A stretch of 31,567 nucleotides of DNA from the UHGV virus genome UHGV-1390503; one strand, 5' to 3'. Numbering within the stretch: position 1 is the first letter of the stretch; every line of letters begins with the position of its first letter. This document shows, piece after piece, positions 8,805-31,567 of the stretch. The DNA comes from a virus. The notes under the pieces are model-generated. The model did no database searches. It saw only the letters and a list, made by a program, of their open reading frames with translations, and was not told the DNA's origin. Made by a program: the position numbers and the translations under genes.

Positions 8805-9083
8805 ATGGCAGCGGAACTTAAGAGATACAGACGCATCACATACTGCAAATTTTGTAAGGCAGAAGGTAAAAAAGTTAGAGCAATTTGGATGACTAAATAC
8901 CCTCCAGCTTACGGTGTACGAGACTGGTATAAACACTATGCATGCGAGGAGCATAAACATTTAATAGAAGACACAGACCCAGACCGGACTTGGGCAGAAA
9001 TCATAGAACGCGGCAAAAACAAGAAACAAGAACGCGACGACTATCTCACAGAAGCAGACTATCAGACGTGGTACAGATTATGA
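8805..9083 (+). CDS. Hypothetical protein with Cys/His zinc-ribbon-like pattern
   Basis: 92 aa; CKFC...CEEHKH. Confidence 0.5.
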   Translation: MAAELKRYRRITYCKFCKAEGKKVRAIWMTKYPPAYGVRDWYKHYACEEHKHLIEDTDPDRTWAEIIERGKNKKQERDDYLTEADYQTWYRL

Positions 9084-11254
9084 ATACATTGCTTTACTTA
9101 GACTTTGAAACATTCTCCGAAGCCGATTTAAAGAAAGTCGGTTCCTACGCTTACGCCGAACATCCAACTACCGAAGTGCTAATCTGTACCTATGCTTTTG
9201 ATGACGAGCCTGTGCAGGTGTGGGACTGCACCGACGGCAGCGACATGCCGGGCGATTTGCACCGAGCGCTACGCCGTCTGGTGAAGCCGAACAGCCGTAT
9301 TAAGATGGTGTGGCATAACGGTGGACTTTTCGATAGGCTCATCATGAAACACTGCTGGGGCTTTGATATTCCGGTAAGCAACACCATTGATACGATGATT
9401 TGGGCGTTTCGCCACGCGTTGCCGGGTTCACTTGATGCGTTGTGCGAAGTGCTGGGTGTATCCGCCGACAACGCGAAAGATAAACGCGGCAAGGCGCTGA
9501 TTCAGCGTTTCTCTAAACCGACGCCTAAGAACTACAAAATCCGCCGTTATACCTCCGAAACGCACCCAGACGAGTGGGCGCTGTTCATCAAGTACGCCAT
9601 TAGCGACATCACCGCGATGCGTGAAGTCTTCCATAAACTGCCGCGGTGGGGTAACTCCGAGTTCGAAGACCGTGTGCTGGAACTGGACCAGTTAATCAAC
9701 GACCGCGGGTTTAAGGTTGACGTTGCACTGGCAGAAGCAGCGATTGAAGCCGTGGAGAAGCACAAGGCACAGTTACAGGAAGAAGCCCAACGCAAATACG
9801 GCGGCTCACTTACTGGTAAAGACTTTCTGCCGATTCTGCGTGAACTTGCGCCAGCGCACCGCATCCACAATGCGCAGAAGTCAACGCTGAATGACCTGCT
9901 AGCGGATGATGATTTACCGGACGACGCCCGCACGATTATCGAAATGCGCCTCGGGGCCGCGTCCACGGCATCAACGAAATATAATCCGCTGCTGTTGGGT
10001 CGCTCTTCGGACGACCGGCGCCGTGGTTGCATCCAGTATGGTGGAGCAAAGCGTACGTTACGATTTGCCGGTAAAGGCTTCCAGCCGCAGAACCTGGCGC
10101 GCGGTTACTACCACGATGAGGAACTGGATAAAGGTATTTCCGCGCTACTTAAAGGCCGTGCGCATCGCCGTTTTGATGTAGCTAAGCTAACGGCATCGAC
10201 GGTGCGTAGTTGCATCATACCGGAAGCTGGGCATAAGTTTGTTGTTGCCGACTACTCTAACGTTGAAGGCCGTGGGCTTGCGTGGCTGGCTGGTGAAGAC
10301 GATTTAATCGAAGTATTTGTAAACGGGGTTGATGTGTATAAAAAACTCGCATCAACGGTGTTCAACGTTGCCTATGAGGATGTAACAAAGGACCAAAGAC
10401 AAATAGCCAAAGCAATGGTTCTGGGCCTCGGCTACGCGGGGGGTGTCGGTGCTTTCGTAACGTTTGCTAAAAACTTAGGTCTTGATTTGAACGATATGAC
10501 CAGAACTTTAGACGGTACTTTCCCCGACCATATATGGGCTGCTACCGCGCGTGGGTATGAGTGGGCGCGTATCCAGGAGGCCAAGCGACCGCCACGTCCT
10601 GGTGAAAAGGATGACCGACCATCATATATACTTGATAAGAAAGTATGGAGAACATGTGACGCTCTGAAACGCATGTACCGAGAAGCTAATCCTGCAATAG
10701 TTCAATTCTGGCGTGACATTGAAGATGCGGCTATGGCGGCTATCCGTAATCCCGGTAAAGAGTTCACCGCAGGTCCGCGCGGCGTTAAGTTTTCGCGTAA
10801 CGTAGAAACAGACAACAACGGCAACAAAGTCGCGGGCTGGTGGTTGCGCATGACGCTGCCGTCAGGTCGCGTTATGTCTTACCCCGGAGTCGGGTTAAGC
10901 GTATCAAAAGAGACAGACGAAGAAGGGAAGGTGTCTACTAACGTGCGCATCAAATACCAGGGAGAGAACCAGTTAACACGTCAGTGGGGCTTTCAGTACA
11001 CCTACTCCGGTAAACTGGTGGAAAACTGCACCCAGGCGCTGTGTCGCGATTTGCTGGCTAATGCTCTGCTGAACGTAGAAGCCAACGGCTACCCGATTGT
11101 ACTTCACGTGCACGATGAGATTATCTGCGAGACACCGGATTTACCAGAATACAATGTTGCTGAGCTTGAGCGGTTGATGTGTGAATTACCAGAATGGGCG
11201 GAGGGGTTCCCTCTTGTAGCGGAAGGTCAGGAGTTAAAACGTTATGCTAAGTAA
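9080..11254 (+). CDS. Family A DNA polymerase with 3'-5' exonuclease domain
   Basis: The track ORF starts at 8990; ATG 9080 is ATGA-coupled. Exo I motif LDFETFS; polymerase motif A DYSNVEGR, motif B KAMVLGLGYAGG, motif C HVHDEI. Confidence 0.9.
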   Translation: MNTLLYLDFETFSEADLKKVGSYAYAEHPTTEVLICTYAFDDEPVQVWDCTDGSDMPGDLHRALRRLVKPNSRIKMVWHNGGLFDRLIMKHCWGFDIPVSNTIDTMIWAFRHALPGSLDALCEVLGVSADNAKDKRGKALIQRFSKPTPKNYKIRRYTSETHPDEWALFIKYAISDITAMREVFHKLPRWGNSEFEDRVLELDQLINDRGFKVDVALAEAAIEAVEKHKAQLQEEAQRKYGGSLTGKDFLPILRELAPAHRIHNAQKSTLNDLLADDDLPDDARTIIEMRLGAASTASTKYNPLLLGRSSDDRRRGCIQYGGAKRTLRFAGKGFQPQNLARGYYHDEELDKGISALLKGRAHRRFDVAKLTASTVRSCIIPEAGHKFVVADYSNVEGRGLAWLAGEDDLIEVFVNGVDVYKKLASTVFNVAYEDVTKDQRQIAKAMVLGLGYAGGVGAFVTFAKNLGLDLNDMTRTLDGTFPDHIWAATARGYEWARIQEAKRPPRPGEKDDRPSYILDKKVWRTCDALKRMYREANPAIVQFWRDIEDAAMAAIRNPGKEFTAGPRGVKFSRNVETDNNGNKVAGWWLRMTLPSGRVMSYPGVGLSVSKETDEEGKVSTNVRIKYQGENQLTRQWGFQYTYSGKLVENCTQALCRDLLANALLNVEANGYPIVLHVHDEIICETPDLPEYNVAELERLMCELPEWAEGFPLVAEGQELKRYAK

Positions 11255-24388: not shown

Positions 24389-24715
24389 ATGCGTAAATTA
24401 GTGTTAGCTCTTGGTTTTATGTCTTTTGCTACTTTTGGGTCTCCGTGTGAACAGGTGTTTAGTGAATCCGTTCTTATGACTTCTGGTGTGCTTGATAAAG
24501 CCGACCCTACTATTGTAAAGGCATTTAAAGACTCTACCGTTCGCGAGTGTGAGGCCGCTGTAGAGGTTGGTAAATCTGGTCTGCCTCCGCAAGCGGTGAC
24601 TTACACCGTGGTGCGTTCCGTAGAGAAAGACGGAGACGCGTTCTACAGCCTGCTAACAGCTACCCGTCTGCAAATGGTGATGACTGGATGGGCGATAGGC
24701 GCGGAAAGTAAATAG
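24389..24715 (+). CDS. Secreted/periplasmic small protein with N-terminal signal peptide
   Basis: 108 aa; MRKLVLALGFMSFATFG followed by a mature part with two Cys; RBS GAGGAA; opposite strand to the surrounding structural genes. Confidence 0.6.
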   Translation: MRKLVLALGFMSFATFGSPCEQVFSESVLMTSGVLDKADPTIVKAFKDSTVRECEAAVEVGKSGLPPQAVTYTVVRSVEKDGDAFYSLLTATRLQMVMTGWAIGAESK

Positions 24716-24780
24716 TTGCCTTTATTTAAAGGAACGCACTGTGGTTAAATAGGACAAATCCTAAACACGAGGAAGTAAGC

Positions 24781-25911
24781 ATGGCCAGGAAGAAAATAAC
24801 CGACGAGCAGTTACAGGAAGAATTGAACGCCGGGATGAAGAATATCGACATTGCCCGTAAATACGGCATCTCAGACCGCGTTATTCGTATACGTAAAGCG
24901 AAACTAGCGAAGAAAGGAGTTGGTCACGGGCGGGACGTCAGCCACCTTGTGCCAGATGGCTACAAGATTAAAGGGACGTCGTCTCTGGTGGACGAGTTCG
25001 GCAACACTAAGTTGCAATGGGTTAAGACTGACACCGATGTCGAACGTCAGGTTGAATTGATGAAAGCCGTAATCGAAGGCATGAAGTCAGAGATTACGCC
25101 CGTCGCACCTGTTAAAGCAGCACGCGCCAAACGCGACGACAAGTTACTCAATCTTTACACGGTATCTGATTTCCATCTCGGTATGCTGGCCTGGGCCGAC
25201 GAGAGCGGCGACGACTGGGATATGAAGATTGCTGAAGACTTGTTCTCCCGTTGGTTCGATGCAGCGTTTCAGAAAGCGCCGGATTCAGGAACTGGGGTTA
25301 TTAACCTGCTGGGTGACCTCGCGCACTTCGACAGTCTGGTTGCTGTTACACCGGCAAGCGGTAATGTTCTTGACGCCGATACCCGCTACCAGAAACTGGT
25401 ACGCTACATGATTCGTATGGTACGTCGTGTTGTCGATATGGCCCTTGTTAAGCATAAAAATGTTCGCTTGCTTATCGTACAAGGGAATCATGACGAAAGC
25501 GGAATGATTTGGTTAGCTGAGATGTTCAGCACGCTATACGACAATGAGCCTCGTGTGTTCGTCGATACTTCGCCAGATGTTTACAAGATGGTGCAACACG
25601 GCAAAACGACGCTGTTCTTCCATCATGGGCATAAAGCGCGCTTCGACGCTATCGAACCAGTTATGATTGCCAAGTTCCGCAAAGCATTCGGCGAGAGCGT
25701 TTATAGCTACGCCCACGTAGGCCACCTGCACCACCAAAAGATTGTAGAAAGCCGTAACATGATTGTTGAGCAACACCGCACCTTAGCGGCCAAAGACGCC
25801 TACGCATCCAGAGGCGGTTGGATGTCGGGCCGTAGTGCAAATGTAATTACTTATAGCGCCGAATACGGCGAGGTCGCACGTTTAACTATTTCACCGGAGA
25901 TGCTGGGATGA
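24781..25911 (+). CDS. Calcineurin-like metallophosphoesterase with N-terminal HTH-like basic domain
   Basis: 376 aa; DFHLG, GDLAHFD, GNHDE, HHGH and GHLHH occur in the order of the metallophosphoesterase signature; the first 50 aa resemble a helix-turn-helix. Confidence 0.7.
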   Translation: MARKKITDEQLQEELNAGMKNIDIARKYGISDRVIRIRKAKLAKKGVGHGRDVSHLVPDGYKIKGTSSLVDEFGNTKLQWVKTDTDVERQVELMKAVIEGMKSEITPVAPVKAARAKRDDKLLNLYTVSDFHLGMLAWADESGDDWDMKIAEDLFSRWFDAAFQKAPDSGTGVINLLGDLAHFDSLVAVTPASGNVLDADTRYQKLVRYMIRMVRRVVDMALVKHKNVRLLIVQGNHDESGMIWLAEMFSTLYDNEPRVFVDTSPDVYKMVQHGKTTLFFHHGHKARFDAIEPVMIAKFRKAFGESVYSYAHVGHLHHQKIVESRNMIVEQHRTLAAKDAYASRGGWMSGRSANVITYSAEYGEVARLTISPEMLG

Positions 25912-26166: not shown

Positions 26167-27333
26167 TTATGCGTAGGTGATACGCTGGATAACGATAGAC
26201 GACTGGTACTGGTTGCCTGTAGCCTGTCCTTCTATGCTCTGAGTGATTGACTCAGGTCCGCCAATCTCAGGTGTAACCGCCGTGAGTTCCGCACGTTTCA
26301 GGCTGAAAGACATAGCCCCGTTTACCCCCGCCAGAATAGAGTTAATCTCTACCTGCTGTTCGTTGATAAACTTCTGAATCATAGCCATGTCGTACAGCTT
26401 ACCGGAGATGGAGAAGGTGTTAGCTGCGCGGCCTCGCTCCACGAACGCGACGCTACTGTTGCCTAGCTCGAACTGTGCGGACGCACCGTTGTCGTTGGTG
26501 ATAGTTAGAGTATCGCAACGCAACGGCGTAGAACCGTCGAACACAGACACATCTACAGACGAGAACGGCTCATCGGTGAACGTCACCTGGGAGAAATCAG
26601 AGCCAGACGGCGGGGTGGTAAGAATCTCCTGACTCAGACCAATGAACGGGAAGCTACCAGTCACCATCGCGTTTACAGCCTGTTCAATGGTGAAACCGGA
26701 GATTTCCACGCCTTTGGTCAACATGTACGCGTCCGGGTTCCCGCACTGGCCTTTGAACCATGTCAGAATGGAGAACGTCTTACACGCGTTACCGGTTTCC
26801 AGCTTGTCGCCAGTTTTAGCGTCGGTGGTTACAGTCTCTGCGGTCAGCGTGTGCTGAATGCCCGCGCCCGTTACTACCAGAGCGGAAGCCGCGGTAACGA
26901 TAAACGGTTTTGCGTTGTCGCCGGTTAAGTCGGTGAACGCAATCAGGTCGCCAACTTCTACACCGTCAGTAATGAAGCTACCGGCAGCGCGGGTGAATGT
27001 TTTACCTGCTGGGGCGACCGTAATTTCGGCACCCGTAATCTCTACCCCTGCTTGCCACGTAGAAGTCATCGCGCCAGCAAGGAAATCATCCTGACTACGG
27101 GAGCTAAGTTCGATGGCGTACTCCCCGCTAACCTGTTTGTTACCGGTGCGGATAGACGTAGTTTCACGGCTGCCGTCAAGTTCGTTGGAAGTAAGCGCAT
27201 CGCGGGTTACCGCTGGAACACCGCCGGTATTACGCAACGGCGACCAGACCGGGTTAGTAGGTGTTACGCCCGGGGTAGTTTCCGCCACATAGAATTGCGC
27301 GGTATTCGCGCCCTTAAAAGGAGTTGTAGCCAT
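26167..27333 (-). CDS. Major tail (tube) protein
   Basis: The track ORF starts at GTG 27339; ATG 27333 has AAGAGG upstream. About 388 aa, Thr/Gly/Ser-rich and beta-rich, placed after the tail-completion genes and ending at a strong terminator. Confidence 0.55.
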   Translation of the reverse strand: MATTPFKGANTAQFYVAETTPGVTPTNPVWSPLRNTGGVPAVTRDALTSNELDGSRETTSIRTGNKQVSGEYAIELSSRSQDDFLAGAMTSTWQAGVEITGAEITVAPAGKTFTRAAGSFITDGVEVGDLIAFTDLTGDNAKPFIVTAASALVVTGAGIQHTLTAETVTTDAKTGDKLETGNACKTFSILTWFKGQCGNPDAYMLTKGVEISGFTIEQAVNAMVTGSFPFIGLSQEILTTPPSGSDFSQVTFTDEPFSSVDVSVFDGSTPLRCDTLTITNDNGASAQFELGNSSVAFVERGRAANTFSISGKLYDMAMIQKFINEQQVEINSILAGVNGAMSFSLKRAELTAVTPEIGGPESITQSIEGQATGNQYQSSIVIQRITYA

Positions 27334-27335
27334 AT

Positions 27336-27752
27336 TCACAGCCTCTTGGTGAATGCAATAAAGTTAATTGACAATGGTCGTTTGGCCCATCCGTTTTCTA
27401 CAATCAGCGGCCCCAGGCTAACCGATTGAACCTCGGCGCAGATGTCGTTACGCGAAAATGACTTACCTGCTTTAAACGCCGTGTTAAGTAAGTCTGCCAT
27501 TTTATTGATTGGCGCGCTACCTTTCACCGACGCGTAGTTAATGTCGACCTGATAAATACCAGAGCGTTGTTCCGTGAAGAACAAATCTGCCTGTTCCGTA
27601 TCAGCCAGCAACATGTAACTTGCCAGATATGGCGTATCTGTTGACGTCGGTGCATCGATATTTTCAAGCGCTACCCTGATGCCGTTGGTGGTCCCGAAGG
27701 CTACCAGCGGCACATCGAACGCTTTTGTTAAGTCCTCAAAGTAGCCCATCAT
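27336..27752 (-). CDS. Tail terminator/completion protein (lambda gpU-like position)
   Basis: 138 aa ORF, ATGA-coupled. Confidence 0.45.
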   Translation of the reverse strand: MMGYFEDLTKAFDVPLVAFGTTNGIRVALENIDAPTSTDTPYLASYMLLADTEQADLFFTEQRSGIYQVDINYASVKGSAPINKMADLLNTAFKAGKSFSRNDICAEVQSVSLGPLIVENGWAKRPLSINFIAFTKRL

Positions 27753-28144: not shown

Positions 28145-28500
28145 TTTCTCACCTGAATAAAGTAGGTCACGGCGTCATCGTTAACCATCTTCTTCTCTAT
28201 GGCTACGACAGACCATTGCTCGCCTCCGAATTGCACCTTGTCTTCCATCTTAGGGACGACACTGCAATCGGCTTTAACAATCATGTCGCCCGCCTGAATC
28301 GTCGTACCGTTTACCAGTCCCGCGTTTACCGGAACCGGAACCGTCTTTAACGGCAACACTTCATCCGCAGACCAGACGTACTCACCGAGAACTTCATCCC
28401 ACACTTTCGAGCCAGCGCGAACCAGAGATACCGTGCTACCAAATTTAGTTAACAGGCGTGTACCAACGCCTTGCATACGTTTACTGAAAGCGGTGCCCAT
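28141..28500 (-). CDS. Head-tail joining (head closure-like) protein
   Basis: The track ORF is 28141..28554; the in-frame ATG at 28500 overlaps the upstream stop (TAATG). Confidence 0.4.
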   Translation of the reverse strand: MGTAFSKRMQGVGTRLLTKFGSTVSLVRAGSKVWDEVLGEYVWSADEVLPLKTVPVPVNAGLVNGTTIQAGDMIVKADCSVVPKMEDKVQFGGEQWSVVAIEKKMVNDDAVTYFIQVRK

Positions 28501-29114
28501 TACGCAGCCTCCAGTCTCGAGATAACCAGTAACGCTGATGGCGCTGTGCCCCATGCGGTTACAGTAGCCGCTTGCGGGTATACGCCACCATAGTTGCTTC
28601 CGGAGCTATCTCGCATAATCTGAACGGCAAACGTCTGGCCTGCTGTCGGGTTAATAACGACGCGGGATTCAATCGGAATCGTTACGTCGGCGCTGACCAG
28701 TTTAGTAGCTGCGGGGGAGCCGTACTGAGCGCCGTTAAGGAGAATGCGTGATAAAAGGATTGATGTACCACTCGCCCCTGTACGCCCCGCCTGTAACTTG
28801 ATGCGAACGGCGTAGTTACCCGCGGTGTTGAATGTAACAAGCCCTGCAGCATTAATCATTACCGGGTCAGATGCACTTCCCTGAGCGGAGCCGAAAGTTA
28901 ACTGCAGTGCGGTATCTACAGCGGTAGGCGCTTGTATTACGGTAGACACAGCGCGGAGGACTTCAACCTCTTTCACGCCTGACGCAGCGTAAAGCATGGA
29001 GTCCGCTAACTGTGTGTTTACCTCGCGCAACAACTCAGGCGTTATAGCGCCGGTTGTATTATCCGCGAGATTTGTCCCGATAAGGGCGAACATCTCTGTT
29101 TTAGTCTTCGCCAT
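28500..29114 (-). CDS. Hypothetical structural protein
   Basis: 204 aa ORF with ATG. Confidence 0.45.
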   Translation of the reverse strand: MAKTKTEMFALIGTNLADNTTGAITPELLREVNTQLADSMLYAASGVKEVEVLRAVSTVIQAPTAVDTALQLTFGSAQGSASDPVMINAAGLVTFNTAGNYAVRIKLQAGRTGASGTSILLSRILLNGAQYGSPAATKLVSADVTIPIESRVVINPTAGQTFAVQIMRDSSGSNYGGVYPQAATVTAWGTAPSALLVISRLEAA

Positions 29115-29632: not shown

Positions 29633-29812
29633 TTATTCCTCTGACTTACGGCGACGGCGCTTAGCACCACCGCCGTTGTTGTGCGCTTCTTCGTTGTCCG
29701 GTTGGGTTGCAACCAGTTCATCCGCTTCTACAACACCGCGAACAGGCATCACCTGACCGTCAACAACATCAACGTGGGTGTACTTTTCACGGATTACGTA
29801 ATTATCTGCCAT
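29633..29812 (-). CDS. Small protein (59 aa) with basic C-terminus, below the track cut-off
   Basis: MADNYVIREKYTHVDVVDGQVMPVRGVVEADELVATQPDNEEAHNNGGGAKRRRRKSEE; RBS AAGGAAAGG. Confidence 0.4.
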   Translation of the reverse strand: MADNYVIREKYTHVDVVDGQVMPVRGVVEADELVATQPDNEEAHNNGGGAKRRRRKSEE

Positions 29813-29828
29813 GACCTTTCCTTATTAC

Positions 29829-29844
29829 GGCCCCGAAGGGCCGT
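29829..29844. other. Intergenic GC hairpin CGGCCC-CGAA-GGGCCG
   Basis: Read directly; lies between the decoration-like gene and the small ORF; no T-run follows. Confidence 0.4.
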
Positions 29845-29848
29845 TGTA

Positions 29849-30196
29849 TTAAGACACAGTTGCTACGGTGCTACTGGAGATAATATTACCATACACATCG
29901 TGAACAACCACTTTATACGTGCCTGAATCTGCGGTAGTGGTTGACGCCTTCGCATAGGAAGCAGCGTTTGCGCCAGCGATAGCGTTGTTATCTTTGTACC
30001 ACTGGTAGGAATACGGCTCCAGACCGCCAGTTACCACTACGGTAAGAGTCATAGTCTGCCCCGCCGTAACTGCGGTGGTAGCCGCGAGTGCGGTGGAGAA
30101 AGACGCAGGAGAAATATTCTCCATGTCAATTTCAAACTGGCCATCGGAGTCTTCATCAGAAACACCGGTAATACGACGTTTAATTACATCAACCAT
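29849..30196 (-). CDS. Ig-like domain protein (possible head decoration protein)
   Basis: 115 aa; the PYSYQWYKDNNAIAGANAASY...ADSGTYKVVVHDVYGN segment matches the bacterial Ig-like (Big_2/I-set-like) pattern. Confidence 0.55.
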   Translation of the reverse strand: MVDVIKRRITGVSDEDSDGQFEIDMENISPASFSTALAATTAVTAGQTMTLTVVVTGGLEPYSYQWYKDNNAIAGANAASYAKASTTTADSGTYKVVVHDVYGNIISSSTVATVS

Positions 30197-30208
30197 TTTT
30201 AAGCTCCT

Positions 30209-30508
30209 TTAGCTTACGGTTCCTGCGTTTTTAAGCGCAGTCAACAGATCTGCTACGGTAGTGCGCAGCGCGGTAACATCAGTTCGGAGTTTGTTGTACT
30301 CCGCTACAAGAGCATCGAACTCGGTCTTAGTCGGGGCATCAGCGGACTGCGCTCCTTCGCCAGCGGTAATGGCCGCGGGGGCGGCTACAGTAGCTGACTT
30401 TTTAACTCCACCAACTACGCTGGTAGTAGCTGGCGTCACTGGGATATCAAAGTCGCCGAAGTCGACATTCTGAAGGCTGCGCGGCAAGCCTTTTCCGGTC
30501 TTAGCCAT
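30209..30508 (-). CDS. Hypothetical head-associated protein
   Basis: 99 aa; RBS AAGAGG; C-terminal coiled-coil-like region. Confidence 0.45.
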   Translation of the reverse strand: MAKTGKGLPRSLQNVDFGDFDIPVTPATTSVVGGVKKSATVAAPAAITAGEGAQSADAPTKTEFDALVAEYNKLRTDVTALRTTVADLLTALKNAGTVS

Positions 30509-30525
30509 AATTTACCTCTTAGTAA

Positions 30526-30552
30526 ATGAAAAGAGGGACCGAAGTCCCTCTC
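30526..30552 (-). terminator. Terminator/attenuator after the major capsid gene
   Basis: GAGGGAC-CGAA-GTCCCTC followed on the minus strand by TTTTCAT. Confidence 0.55.
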
Positions 30553-30567
30553 GATTATATCTTAACC

Positions 30568-31557
30568 TTAAGCCCCGACACCAGTTACCAGGAAGGCGAT
30601 TGGTACGTGCTTACGGTCGACCACACGGTTCCAGTTGGAGGCGTTCGCCAGGTCCTGCCAGGAAGCAGAACGTGCAACAGTCTCGGTGCCGTTGCCGGTG
30701 ATTACCGCGCTGGTGAAGCTGTAGCCTAGTGGGTGCAGCAGCCAGGTCTTACGAGTCCACAGGGTTTCGACACCGCCGCCGTTCCCGCGGGATGCTTCGC
30801 GCTCGTATTCCAGCGGGTTAGACGGGTTGCCTTCGCCGTAACCGATAGCGCCGTTACCGAAGATGATGGAGATGAACTTACGGCTGCCGCCGGTACCGAC
30901 TACGGTCATGCTGTCGTCAACAATCACACGGTAACCCTGGTAGGTGGCGAACAGGGTGTCGTTGTCGGCGTCTTTGATGAAGTCAATAAGCTGCTGCTTA
31001 CGCGCCTGCGCATAAACGAAGCTGTGCATCGCGATAGCGCCCAGCACTTCGCCACCGTTACCCATCAGAGCATCGCCCATAGTCTGAGTGGCGTCGATGA
31101 ACGCGCCTGCGTCGAAGCCAAGCGTAGCGGACACGTCGATAACCATATCGTTCTGCGTATGGTAAGCATCGGTAGCGGCTACGTTGTCGTTGTACAGACC
31201 GAGCGCGGTAGCAATCAGACGGCGTTGCGCCTGGCGCTGCCAGAAGTTATCCAGACGAGAAGCCACGGATTGCAGCGGATTCTGACTGGTCAGTTCGACA
31301 GTCAGGTCAGCCTGGCCAAAACCTTCGTTCAGGTAGGCAACGCGCGCCATCATCTCACCAGTCTGCACATTACGAGGGGTTGCGATGTCCTGGTACACGT
31401 CATTCGAGTAGTTCGGCTCGATAGACGTATCAATCGCTTTCCAGAAAGGGATGTTGGCGGTGTTGGACGGACCGCGAGCAATCTCTGCGGCGTACGGAGT
31501 CGGGGTCAGAATACCGGACTGGAAGAACGCGGTTTTTTCCACCGGGTCCTCGGTCAT
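30568..31557 (-). CDS. Major capsid protein (putative)
   Basis: 329 aa ORF with ATG at 31557-31555; size and composition fit a capsid protein; followed by an attenuator hairpin and then decoration-like genes. Confidence 0.55.
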   Translation of the reverse strand: MTEDPVEKTAFFQSGILTPTPYAAEIARGPSNTANIPFWKAIDTSIEPNYSNDVYQDIATPRNVQTGEMMARVAYLNEGFGQADLTVELTSQNPLQSVASRLDNFWQRQAQRRLIATALGLYNDNVAATDAYHTQNDMVIDVSATLGFDAGAFIDATQTMGDALMGNGGEVLGAIAMHSFVYAQARKQQLIDFIKDADNDTLFATYQGYRVIVDDSMTVVGTGGSRKFISIIFGNGAIGYGEGNPSNPLEYEREASRGNGGGVETLWTRKTWLLHPLGYSFTSAVITGNGTETVARSASWQDLANASNWNRVVDRKHVPIAFLVTGVGA

Positions 31558-31567
31558 ATAAGACGCC

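Follow-up and report, generated by a model that had tools for sequence, protein, structure and literature searches.

An Ig-like accessory protein paired with a small head-fibre-like protein in the head module of a Kagunavirus genome

Gene content of the locus

We analysed a window of 31,567 nucleotides, meaning the whole stretch of DNA represented by the UHGV virus genome UHGV-1390503. The window belongs to a Kagunavirus (K1G-like siphophage, Guernseyvirinae) and is approximately 91-92% identical in DNA sequence to the Escherichia phages EP-B-K_E2, Bas72 and others. Elsewhere in the window, replication, tailspike, tape-measure and tube genes were found, as expected for a Kagunavirus.

The gene of interest (Table 1) encodes an acidic Ig-like accessory protein of 12.0 kDa (pI 4.35), which lacks cysteine. 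A preliminary description of this DNA, made without database searches, had given the same length and position for the open reading frame, and both motifs that it quoted are present in the translation: YQWYKDNNAIAGANAASY covers residues 64-81 and SGTYKVVVHD residues 91-100. It had also placed the gene downstream of the capsid gene. This is correct as to direction, but the two are not adjacent, since a gene for a head-fibre-like protein lies between them. The strong ribosome-binding site of the Ig gene shares one base with the stop codon of this fibre gene, which indicates tight coupling. The gene order is capsid gene, fibre gene, Ig gene, a 59-aa ORF and the Ad1 adaptor gene, and it is the same in the phages f18SE, SF5, T102 and fEg-Eco19. 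Thus the locus does encode an Ig-like accessory protein within the head module, as had been proposed.

The capsid protein has its best PDB match in gp13 of SPP1 (6r3a, 4an5; 1.2e-42), with no Guernseyvirinae capsid present in the PDB. In relatives the protein is 349 aa long and its start lies 20 codons ahead of the listed ATG, and it is approximately 92% identical across genera. Two UUCG hairpins frame the fibre and Ig genes. The first is terminator-like and probably serves as an attenuator ahead of the gene pair, and the second closes the two-gene cassette and is retained in phage Bas71, which is described below.

Table 1. Positions of the features in the window.
Feature	Position	Strand	Evidence
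Major capsid protein gene, SPP1 gp13-like, HK97 fold	30568..31567 (5' end beyond window)	-	phrog_247, 7.8e-117
UUCG hairpin with T-run, terminator-like, directly after the capsid gene stop	30531..30552	-	Terminator scan; -15.5 kcal/mol, z -4.4
Segment missing from Bas71	30046..30521		Natural clean 476-bp deletion at TTAC microhomology
Mini head-fibre-like protein gene, 99 aa	30209..30508	-	phrog_4366 'head fiber protein', 3.6e-41
Ribosome-binding site of the Ig gene, AAGGAG, strong	30204..30209	-	7 nt upstream of the start
Ig-like accessory protein gene, 115 aa (stop codon included in positions)	29849..30196	-	ATG-to-TAA ORF; phrog_4069; Pfam
Codons 1-28, conserved N-terminal extension, putative docking peptide, net charge -5.5	30113..30196	-	Conservation, dN/dS, AlphaFold
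Codons 29-115, single I-set/C2-type Ig-like domain	29852..30112	-	Pfam; PDB matches 9ncf, 9c2d, 8zvi, 5lxk, 9occ; AlphaFold
Second UUCG hairpin, without T-run, directly after the Ig gene stop	29827..29844	-	-14.7 kcal/mol, z -3.9

Class and homologues of the Ig domain

Three Pfam immunoglobulin families were matched above their curated gathering cut-offs, namely Ig_3 (31.7 bits against 30), Ig_2 (27.1 against 27) and I-set (24.1 against 23.7). Each of these passes was by a narrow margin. Matches to the Pfam SprB repeat (23.4 bits against a cut-off of 28) and to BiPBP_C were both sub-threshold and were set aside. In PHROGs, the protein matched phrog_4069, named "Hoc-like head decoration", at 2e-57, with residues 1-115 aligned to profile positions 1-116 of 116. 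Judged by these profile matches, the Ig signature is well above chance. The preliminary description had called it a bacterial Ig-like signature; the Ig-like part of this claim stands, but Big_2, the Pfam family of that name, gave no match at E<=0.1, and the domain is classed from its sequence as I-set/Ig_3 (C2-like).

The closest solved structures were the Ig domains of Bas63 Hex-Dec (9ncf, 1.6e-30) and Sf14 gp20 (9c2d, 9e-28), followed by T5 pb10 (8zvi, 2.3e-12; 5lxk, 1e-11), in which residues 71-147 align with residues 29-106 of the window protein at approximately 39% identity, and by Sf11 gp24 (9occ, 1e-5). All PDB alignments start at residues 22-29 of the query or later. [quoted passage not shown] In a Foldseek search, capsid Ig decoration proteins of Moo19 and N4 came first, then eukaryotic C2 and I-set domains, T5 pb10 and RB49 Hoc. 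Together with the AlphaFold model described below, this search confirms the Ig fold. The idea that the protein decorates the capsid, already put forward in the preliminary description, thus agrees with the phrog_4069 and GenBank labels and with the nearest solved Ig domains, which sit on capsid hexamers, while the capsid location itself is one that we infer from gene position.

When the full protein was searched exhaustively against 1.84 billion representatives, 27,060 Ig-domain matches were returned, mostly giant multi-Ig surface proteins of bacteria, and no relatives of the same architecture. Among the best 150 of these 27,060, every match began at residue 17 or later, nearly all at residues 25-54, so that a few reach into residues 17-27 and none into residues 1-16. 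This search delimits the Ig unit to approximately residues 28-114.

The same type of Ig domain also occurs on tails. One example is Sf11 gp24, a tail tube protein whose C-terminal part is an Ig domain, and further examples are found in the tail proteins of phrog_290, phrog_158 and phrog_853. Because the same Ig type decorates the Sf11 tail tube, Ig homology does not fix the location of the window protein. The domain is, on these comparisons, a promiscuous display or adhesion module, and the location of the window protein would depend on its own N-terminal peptide.

It is conceivable that the free Ig protein decorates the tail tube in trans, in place of the C-terminal Ig domain that related tubes carry in cis. 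The tube protein of the window (26167..27339) matches positions 6-329 of phrog_290 and the Ig protein positions 329-403 of 411; this profile spans tube and Ig, and some relatives therefore have a tube-Ig fusion. The Ig domain of the Sf11 tube protein is homologous, and several records label the Ig gene 'major tail protein' or 'tail protein'. However, such labels merely reflect Ig-domain similarity, and the Ig gene stands in the head block, at a distance of seven genes from that of the tube, with a homologue of head fibres as its coupled partner. To our knowledge, a tube decoration that acts in trans through a peptide anchor has no precedent, and we regard this arrangement as very unlikely.

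A conserved N-terminal extension

The protein consists of an N-terminal extension and a single Ig domain. Two stretches of the extension and its junction are near-invariant, MVDVIKRRITGVS (residues 1-13) and IDMxNISPASFS (residues 23-34, running on into the Ig part), with a variable acidic loop (residues 14-22) between them. Mean entropy is 0.21 bits for residues 1-13, 1.32 bits for residues 14-22 and 0.23 bits for residues 23-34. Within the Ig domain, residues 29-65 are the most variable (approximately 50% identity between genera) and residues 90-115 are almost invariant. The gene is under purifying selection, with dN/dS against the Jerseyvirus orthologues of 0.12-0.16 overall, 0.12-0.14 in the extension, 0.23-0.24 in residues 29-65 and 0.06-0.12 in residues 66-115, all of which are approximate values given that dS is near saturation between genera.

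The AlphaFold model, which was built on a shallow alignment of 33 sequences and used only to confirm the Ig core, has a mean pLDDT of 64, with 70-85 in the Ig core and below 50 in residues 1-28. This suggests, as far as the model can be trusted, that residues 1-28 form a flexible tail. A PDB profile search with the N-terminal anchor gave nothing credible, with one chance match (3lft, domain E 4), and by this comparison no solved capsid-binding domain is similar to the anchor. In PHROGs, the sole match of the first 34 aa, used on their own, was phrog_4069 (6.4e-12). The anchor peptide occurs in the same 457 phage records as the whole protein, and the searches of phage records, PHROGs and IMG/VR found neither an anchor attached to another domain nor multi-Ig variants. 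The anchor is followed by exactly one Ig domain in 60 of 60 IMG/VR loci; the protein has 113-117 aa in 58 of these, and the other two ORFs are truncated.

The partner fibre and its relation to phage phi29

In the fibre protein, the N-terminal motif TGKGLPRSL is conserved, the body is mosaic, and the C-terminus is helical, with LLTALKNAGTVS as its last residues. In all 60 IMG/VR loci, and likewise in all sequenced relatives that were inspected, the gene directly preceding the Ig gene is a fibre ORF of 75-128 aa that starts M-x-x-TGKGLPRSL. Among the bodies that follow TGKGLPRSL, at least 4-5 unrelated mosaic types can be distinguished, each of which ends in a helical segment. The distance from the fibre stop to the Ig start is conserved, at 11-12 nt in four sequenced relatives and 10-16 nt in the IMG/VR loci. 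The profile of the fibre family matches the phi29 head fibre gp8.5 (3qc7, 6qvk; E 0.002) in an 'AATTTxLGGVKKxAxV' segment and in the tip 'LKNAGxxS' at the extreme C-terminus. In addition, all ten fibre members tested matched the Pfam family Phage_head_fibr, with a best E of 5e-6, which is below the gathering score.

Two further ideas about the gene pair were considered. A read-through fusion of fibre and Ig would be in frame in the window, where one TAA separates the two genes; it was rejected on the finding that the genes are out of frame in f18SE, SF5, T102 and fEg-Eco19. In fEg-Eco19 and L025, the fibre gene is frameshifted and the Ig gene intact, which could mean that the Ig protein is independent of the fibre, and this was not relied on because a sequencing error is possible.

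The main rival to a location on the head is that both proteins belong to the neck. Twelve Ig copies would then surround the connector as a collar, with N-terminal 'ropes' that hold the helical fibres as whiskers, as in Bas63, Sf14 and the podophage GP4. Such a structure would account for the invariable pairing of a small helical fibre with an Ig protein that has a conserved N-terminal extension, and for the position of the gene pair just upstream of the Ad1 adaptor; conservation that is mainly N-terminal in both proteins would fit mutual binding. Many GenBank records also name one or other gene 'neck whiskers' or 'fibritin', but these names are inconsistent automatic annotation that has been applied to both genes. 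No collar or whisker chain of Bas63 or Sf14 was present among the PDB matches (E<=1) or among the matches of the fibre profile, and the sole solved relative of the fibre is a head fibre, phi29 gp8.5. Furthermore, the Bas63 collar needs three sets of disulfides (collar-collar, collar-adaptor ring), whereas the Ig-like protein lacks cysteine, and an extension of 28 residues would be short for a rope threading two whisker dimers. Overall, we consider a place on the neck unlikely.

Distribution and public annotation

The Ig-like protein is found in approximately 458 phage records across all three Guernseyvirinae genera. Amino acid identity to the window protein is 80-96% in Kagunavirus and 64-70% in Jerseyvirus, and the protein is also found in Cornellvirus (FSL SP-031). 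Lengths range from 113 to 132 aa in all 120 listed database clusters. It is already known as a family: the window protein, with 96% identity to sequences already catalogued, belongs squarely to phrog_4069, for which the same role has been predicted. The labels given to the gene in public records conflict with each other and include Hoc-like, capsid decoration, neck whiskers, fibritin, major tail protein and hypothetical. A more distant Klebsiella phage, with a capsid protein 44% identical, has neither the Ig nor the fibre gene in this slot, and the pair is therefore a lineage-specific accessory insertion.

Dispensability and presence in virions

Bas71 (LotteLoewe) carries a natural deletion in which the fibre gene is lost entirely, along with the first 50 codons of the Ig gene. 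This phage is a viable, propagated isolate of the BASEL collection, obtained from river water. According to the BASEL paper, the Kagunavirus isolates Bas70-76 are very similar in behaviour, with nothing distinctive reported for Bas71. Since Bas71 is viable minus both genes, the fibre and Ig proteins are not needed for plaque formation, and this dispensability is shared with Hoc, pb10 and the phi29 fibres.

The Bas71 deletion also bears on the idea that the protein sits on the head chiefly as a cement, reinforcing the capsid mechanically against heat or pressure. Pb10, the closest single-Ig homologue, is reported to protect T5 from genome release in extreme conditions, and the Ig domains of N4 gp17, which lie flat on the capsid, have been proposed to reinforce the quasi-3-fold axes; N4 and Moo19 were the top Foldseek matches. 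The near-invariant C-terminal half of the Ig domain is likewise what would be expected of a structural contact. Yet Bas71 propagates as a normal river-water isolate without the protein, the first half of the Ig domain is its fastest-evolving part and is a better fit to an exposed surface, and a monomeric 87-residue domain on a flexible tether would be ill suited to clamping capsomers. A mainly mechanical role is, in our opinion, about as improbable as a place on the neck.

Of the 29 function-annotated ORFs of the Jerseyvirus T102, every one but ORFs 5, 45 and 54 was reported to yield peptides in mass spectrometry (MS) of CsCl-purified virions. The T102 orthologue of the Ig-like protein is ORF22, annotated as 'putative Hoc protein'; it is outside the undetected set and was therefore detected, by exclusion. 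This dataset is non-specific, in that endolysin was also detected and, by the same exclusion, so were other function-annotated replication proteins. The detection of ORF22 is weak evidence because endolysin was in the same preparation. The preliminary description had held that absence from virions would speak against a decoration role, and the T102 result points, to this limited extent, towards presence. Our literature searches found no decisive virion proteomics or cryo-EM for Kagunavirus or Jerseyvirus; a study of JSSK01 identified the coat protein alone, and a 2026 paper terms the Guernseyvirinae group 'structurally uncharacterized'.

The non-specific nature of the T102 dataset would be compatible with a protein that is absent from the particle and works inside the cell, as a late-expressed assembly helper or a host-directed factor. 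However, phage Ig_3 and I-set domains are confined to virion structural proteins according to a survey as cited in PMC7602432, a fibre homologue is the coupled neighbour of the Ig gene within the head module, and the T102 orthologue was detected, if weakly and by exclusion, in CsCl-purified particles. We give a role outside the virion very little probability.

A possible role on the outer head

The reading that we prefer, and to which we attach moderate confidence, is that the Ig-like protein is a dispensable outer-head protein whose N-terminal peptide docks on the SPP1-type capsid, with the Ig domain pointing outward and engaged in weak, multivalent glycan binding. [quoted passage not shown] This peptide would substitute for the globular capsid-binding domains of T5 pb10 and Bas63 Hex-Dec, and the single Ig domain would project into solvent. 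With many copies per head, the protein may bind surface glycans (host O-antigen, capsule or mucus) in a weak, multivalent manner. Such binding could raise the host encounter rate in the gut and would not be needed for infection on plates.

Several further observations are consistent with docking on the head. By analogy, the polarity of an N-terminal anchor and a C-terminal Ig part is the same as in pb10, Hex-Dec and gp20. The constraint on the anchor, set beside a capsid protein that is highly conserved across genera and the divergent residues 29-65 of the Ig domain, is what the logic of a capsid-facing peptide would predict. The gene is located in the head block, and its partner is related to the phi29 head fibre, which also suggests a place on the head. 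Adhesion to mucus or glycans is a conjectural part of this proposal. Pb10 and N4 gp17 have been reported as capsid stabilisers and not as adhesins alone, an observation that counts against an adhesin.

We also entertain, more tentatively, the possibility that the fibre and Ig proteins form one obligate two-protein display unit, in which the N-terminal TGKGLPRSL of the fibre and the MVDVIKRRITGVS...IDMxNISPASFS stretch of the Ig protein co-anchor on the SPP1-type capsid or bind each other. This is a doubtful proposal.

Significance

The discovery value of the window protein is small, as its family was already catalogued with the same predicted role and it adds one more member. What the present work adds is the fixed architecture of an anchor plus one Ig domain, the finding that a mosaic, phi29-related fibre is its obligate partner, and the recognition of Bas71 as a natural double knock-out. 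Kagunaviruses are under development as small chassis for synthetic biology and therapy, for which a dispensable surface protein anchored by 28 residues, with Bas71 as a natural null background, would offer a convenient display platform. The protein and Bas71 would also make a clean system for studying Ig-like decoration in the adherence of gut phages to mucus or host glycans. Finally, the fibre and Ig genes would benefit from consistent names in public records in place of the present mixture (Hoc-like, neck whiskers, fibritin, major tail protein).

Comparison with known systems

The nearest system is phrog_4069 itself (f18SE gp30, T102 ORF22, K1G, Bas72), from which the window protein does not differ materially: length (113-117 aa), anchor, single Ig domain and gene order are all the same. 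The name of this family is itself a prediction, with no member placed on a virion.

T5 pb10 shares with the window protein a single C-terminal Ig-like domain, an N-terminal anchor, a small size (164 aa compared with 115 aa) and non-essentiality. Its anchor, however, is a folded alpha-helical domain of approximately 70 residues at the hexamer centres of a T=13 capsid, whereas that of the window protein has approximately 28 residues, no similarity to it and a predicted flexible or beta character with no helix predicted, and the capsid is SPP1-like. Bas63 Hex-Dec (9ncf, Felixounavirus/Mooglevirus) and Sf14 gp20 (9c2d) provide the best Ig matches (per-domain E to 8e-10) and have an N-terminal anchor, a C-terminal Ig part and a Hoc-like role. 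They differ in that their Ig repeats number 1-4 in tandem and that a large pseudo-C2 domain at the N-terminus binds the capsid. The alignments cover the Ig repeats alone, from approximately residue 132 of the chain onwards, and the pseudo-C2 domain has no counterpart in the window protein.

The preliminary description had taken T4 Hoc as its example. Both proteins are Ig-like and dispensable, in our case from the Bas71 deletion, and Hoc is an outer-capsid protein, a location that is probable for the window protein. Hoc binds at hexamer centres as a monomer and mediates adhesion to mucin glycans. The window protein is not of the Hoc family, however. [quoted passage not shown] Because the anchor-domain features of Hoc, pb10 and Hex-Dec are all missing from it, 'Hoc-like' describes an analogy and not membership.

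In phi29, dispensable head fibre trimers touch the Ig-like BIG2 domain of the capsid protein gp8 (PMC7602432). The window system likewise combines a dispensable fibre with an Ig-like domain, and the partner fibre contains both of the gp8.5 segments noted above. In phi29, the capsid protein itself contains the Ig domain and the base of the fibre is a beta-tulip, whereas the window encodes a separate Ig protein and a fibre that has a short N-terminal motif in place of the beta-tulip. If the tentative two-protein display unit is real, it would be a minimal, peptide-anchored and trans-assembled counterpart of the phi29 head-fibre/BIG2 pair or of the Bas63 collar-whisker, with a mode of anchoring unlike that of any solved capsid-binding domain and a fibre body that can be freely swapped.

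Loss and possible damage of the fibre and Ig genes

We identified a 476-bp deletion in the viable BASEL phage Bas71 (PQ850615.1; locus L001, 2441-2538), corresponding to window 30046-30521, with TTAC microhomology at the deletion site. The entire fibre gene and codons 1-50 of the Ig gene have been lost, and the Ig-gene remnant of 62 aa carries the annotation label "Hoc-like head decoration protein". We also found, in some other genomes or contigs, a frameshifted fibre gene beside an intact Ig gene, or an Ig ORF truncated to 46 or 76 aa (L006, which is fEg-Eco19, 1501-1871; L025, about 2300-2760; L008; L060). These could be real pseudogenes or errors of sequencing and assembly.

Organization of the gene pair and its surroundings

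The fibre and Ig ORFs lie in the same frame and are divided by a single TAA (window 30194-30211, minus strand). A read-through fusion was rejected: the shared frame is not kept in four relatives and is therefore a coincidence. The pair is flanked by two UUCG-tetraloop hairpins, both stable. A T-run is present only at the first, immediately after the capsid gene, and none at the second; the first hairpin looks like a terminator or attenuator.

Features in and around the fibre-Ig region and elsewhere in the window
Feature	Position	Strand	Assignment
DNA polymerase ORF	8990-11254	+	internal endonuclease-family match
Two genes, one a DNA repair exonuclease	24389-25911	+	phrog_704, 3.7e-166 (exonuclease)
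Tail tube protein gene	26167-27339	-	phrog_290 profile match
204-aa ORF	28500-29114	-	phrog_3614, annotated unknown function
59-aa ORF	29633-29812	-	phrog_4451, annotated unknown function
Second hairpin	29827-29844	-	predicted -14.7 kcal/mol
"Head fibre" gene, 99 aa	30209-30508	-	compared with L007-L066
First hairpin	30531-30552	-	predicted -15.5 kcal/mol

The 59-aa ORF, whose C-terminal tail is strongly basic (GGGAKRRRRKSEE), occupies a conserved slot with the Ig and Ad1 adaptor genes on either side, and bears the unsupported label "head-tail joining protein" in the Jerseyvirus relative T102. The 204-aa ORF, flanked by the Ad1 gene and the Hc1 head-closure gene, weakly matches the BclA C-terminal (TNF/C1q-like) domain (E 0.008) and might encode a neck or surface appendage. 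Its 3' end shares 55 nt with the listed downstream Hc1 ORF, within which the true Hc1 start probably lies.

In the tail module, the tube protein aligns to positions 6-329 of phrog_290 (411 positions) and the free Ig protein to 329-403, so some relatives have a tube protein with an Ig domain of this type fused on. The two plus-strand genes interrupt this minus-strand module, with the tube gene on one side and the tape-measure region on the other. Elsewhere, DNA polymerase residues about 472-568 match endonuclease family phrog_93 (4.9e-11); this internal stretch is a possible insertion of the homing-endonuclease or intein type.

Mosaicism of the fibre gene

Across Guernseyvirinae (L007-L066), the N-terminal TGKGLPRSL motif of the fibre protein is conserved, and the bodies that follow are swapped among at least four to five unrelated mosaic types, in ORFs of 75-128 aa. 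Against the phi29 head fibre gp8.5, the fibre-family profile gives a weak match at the tip.
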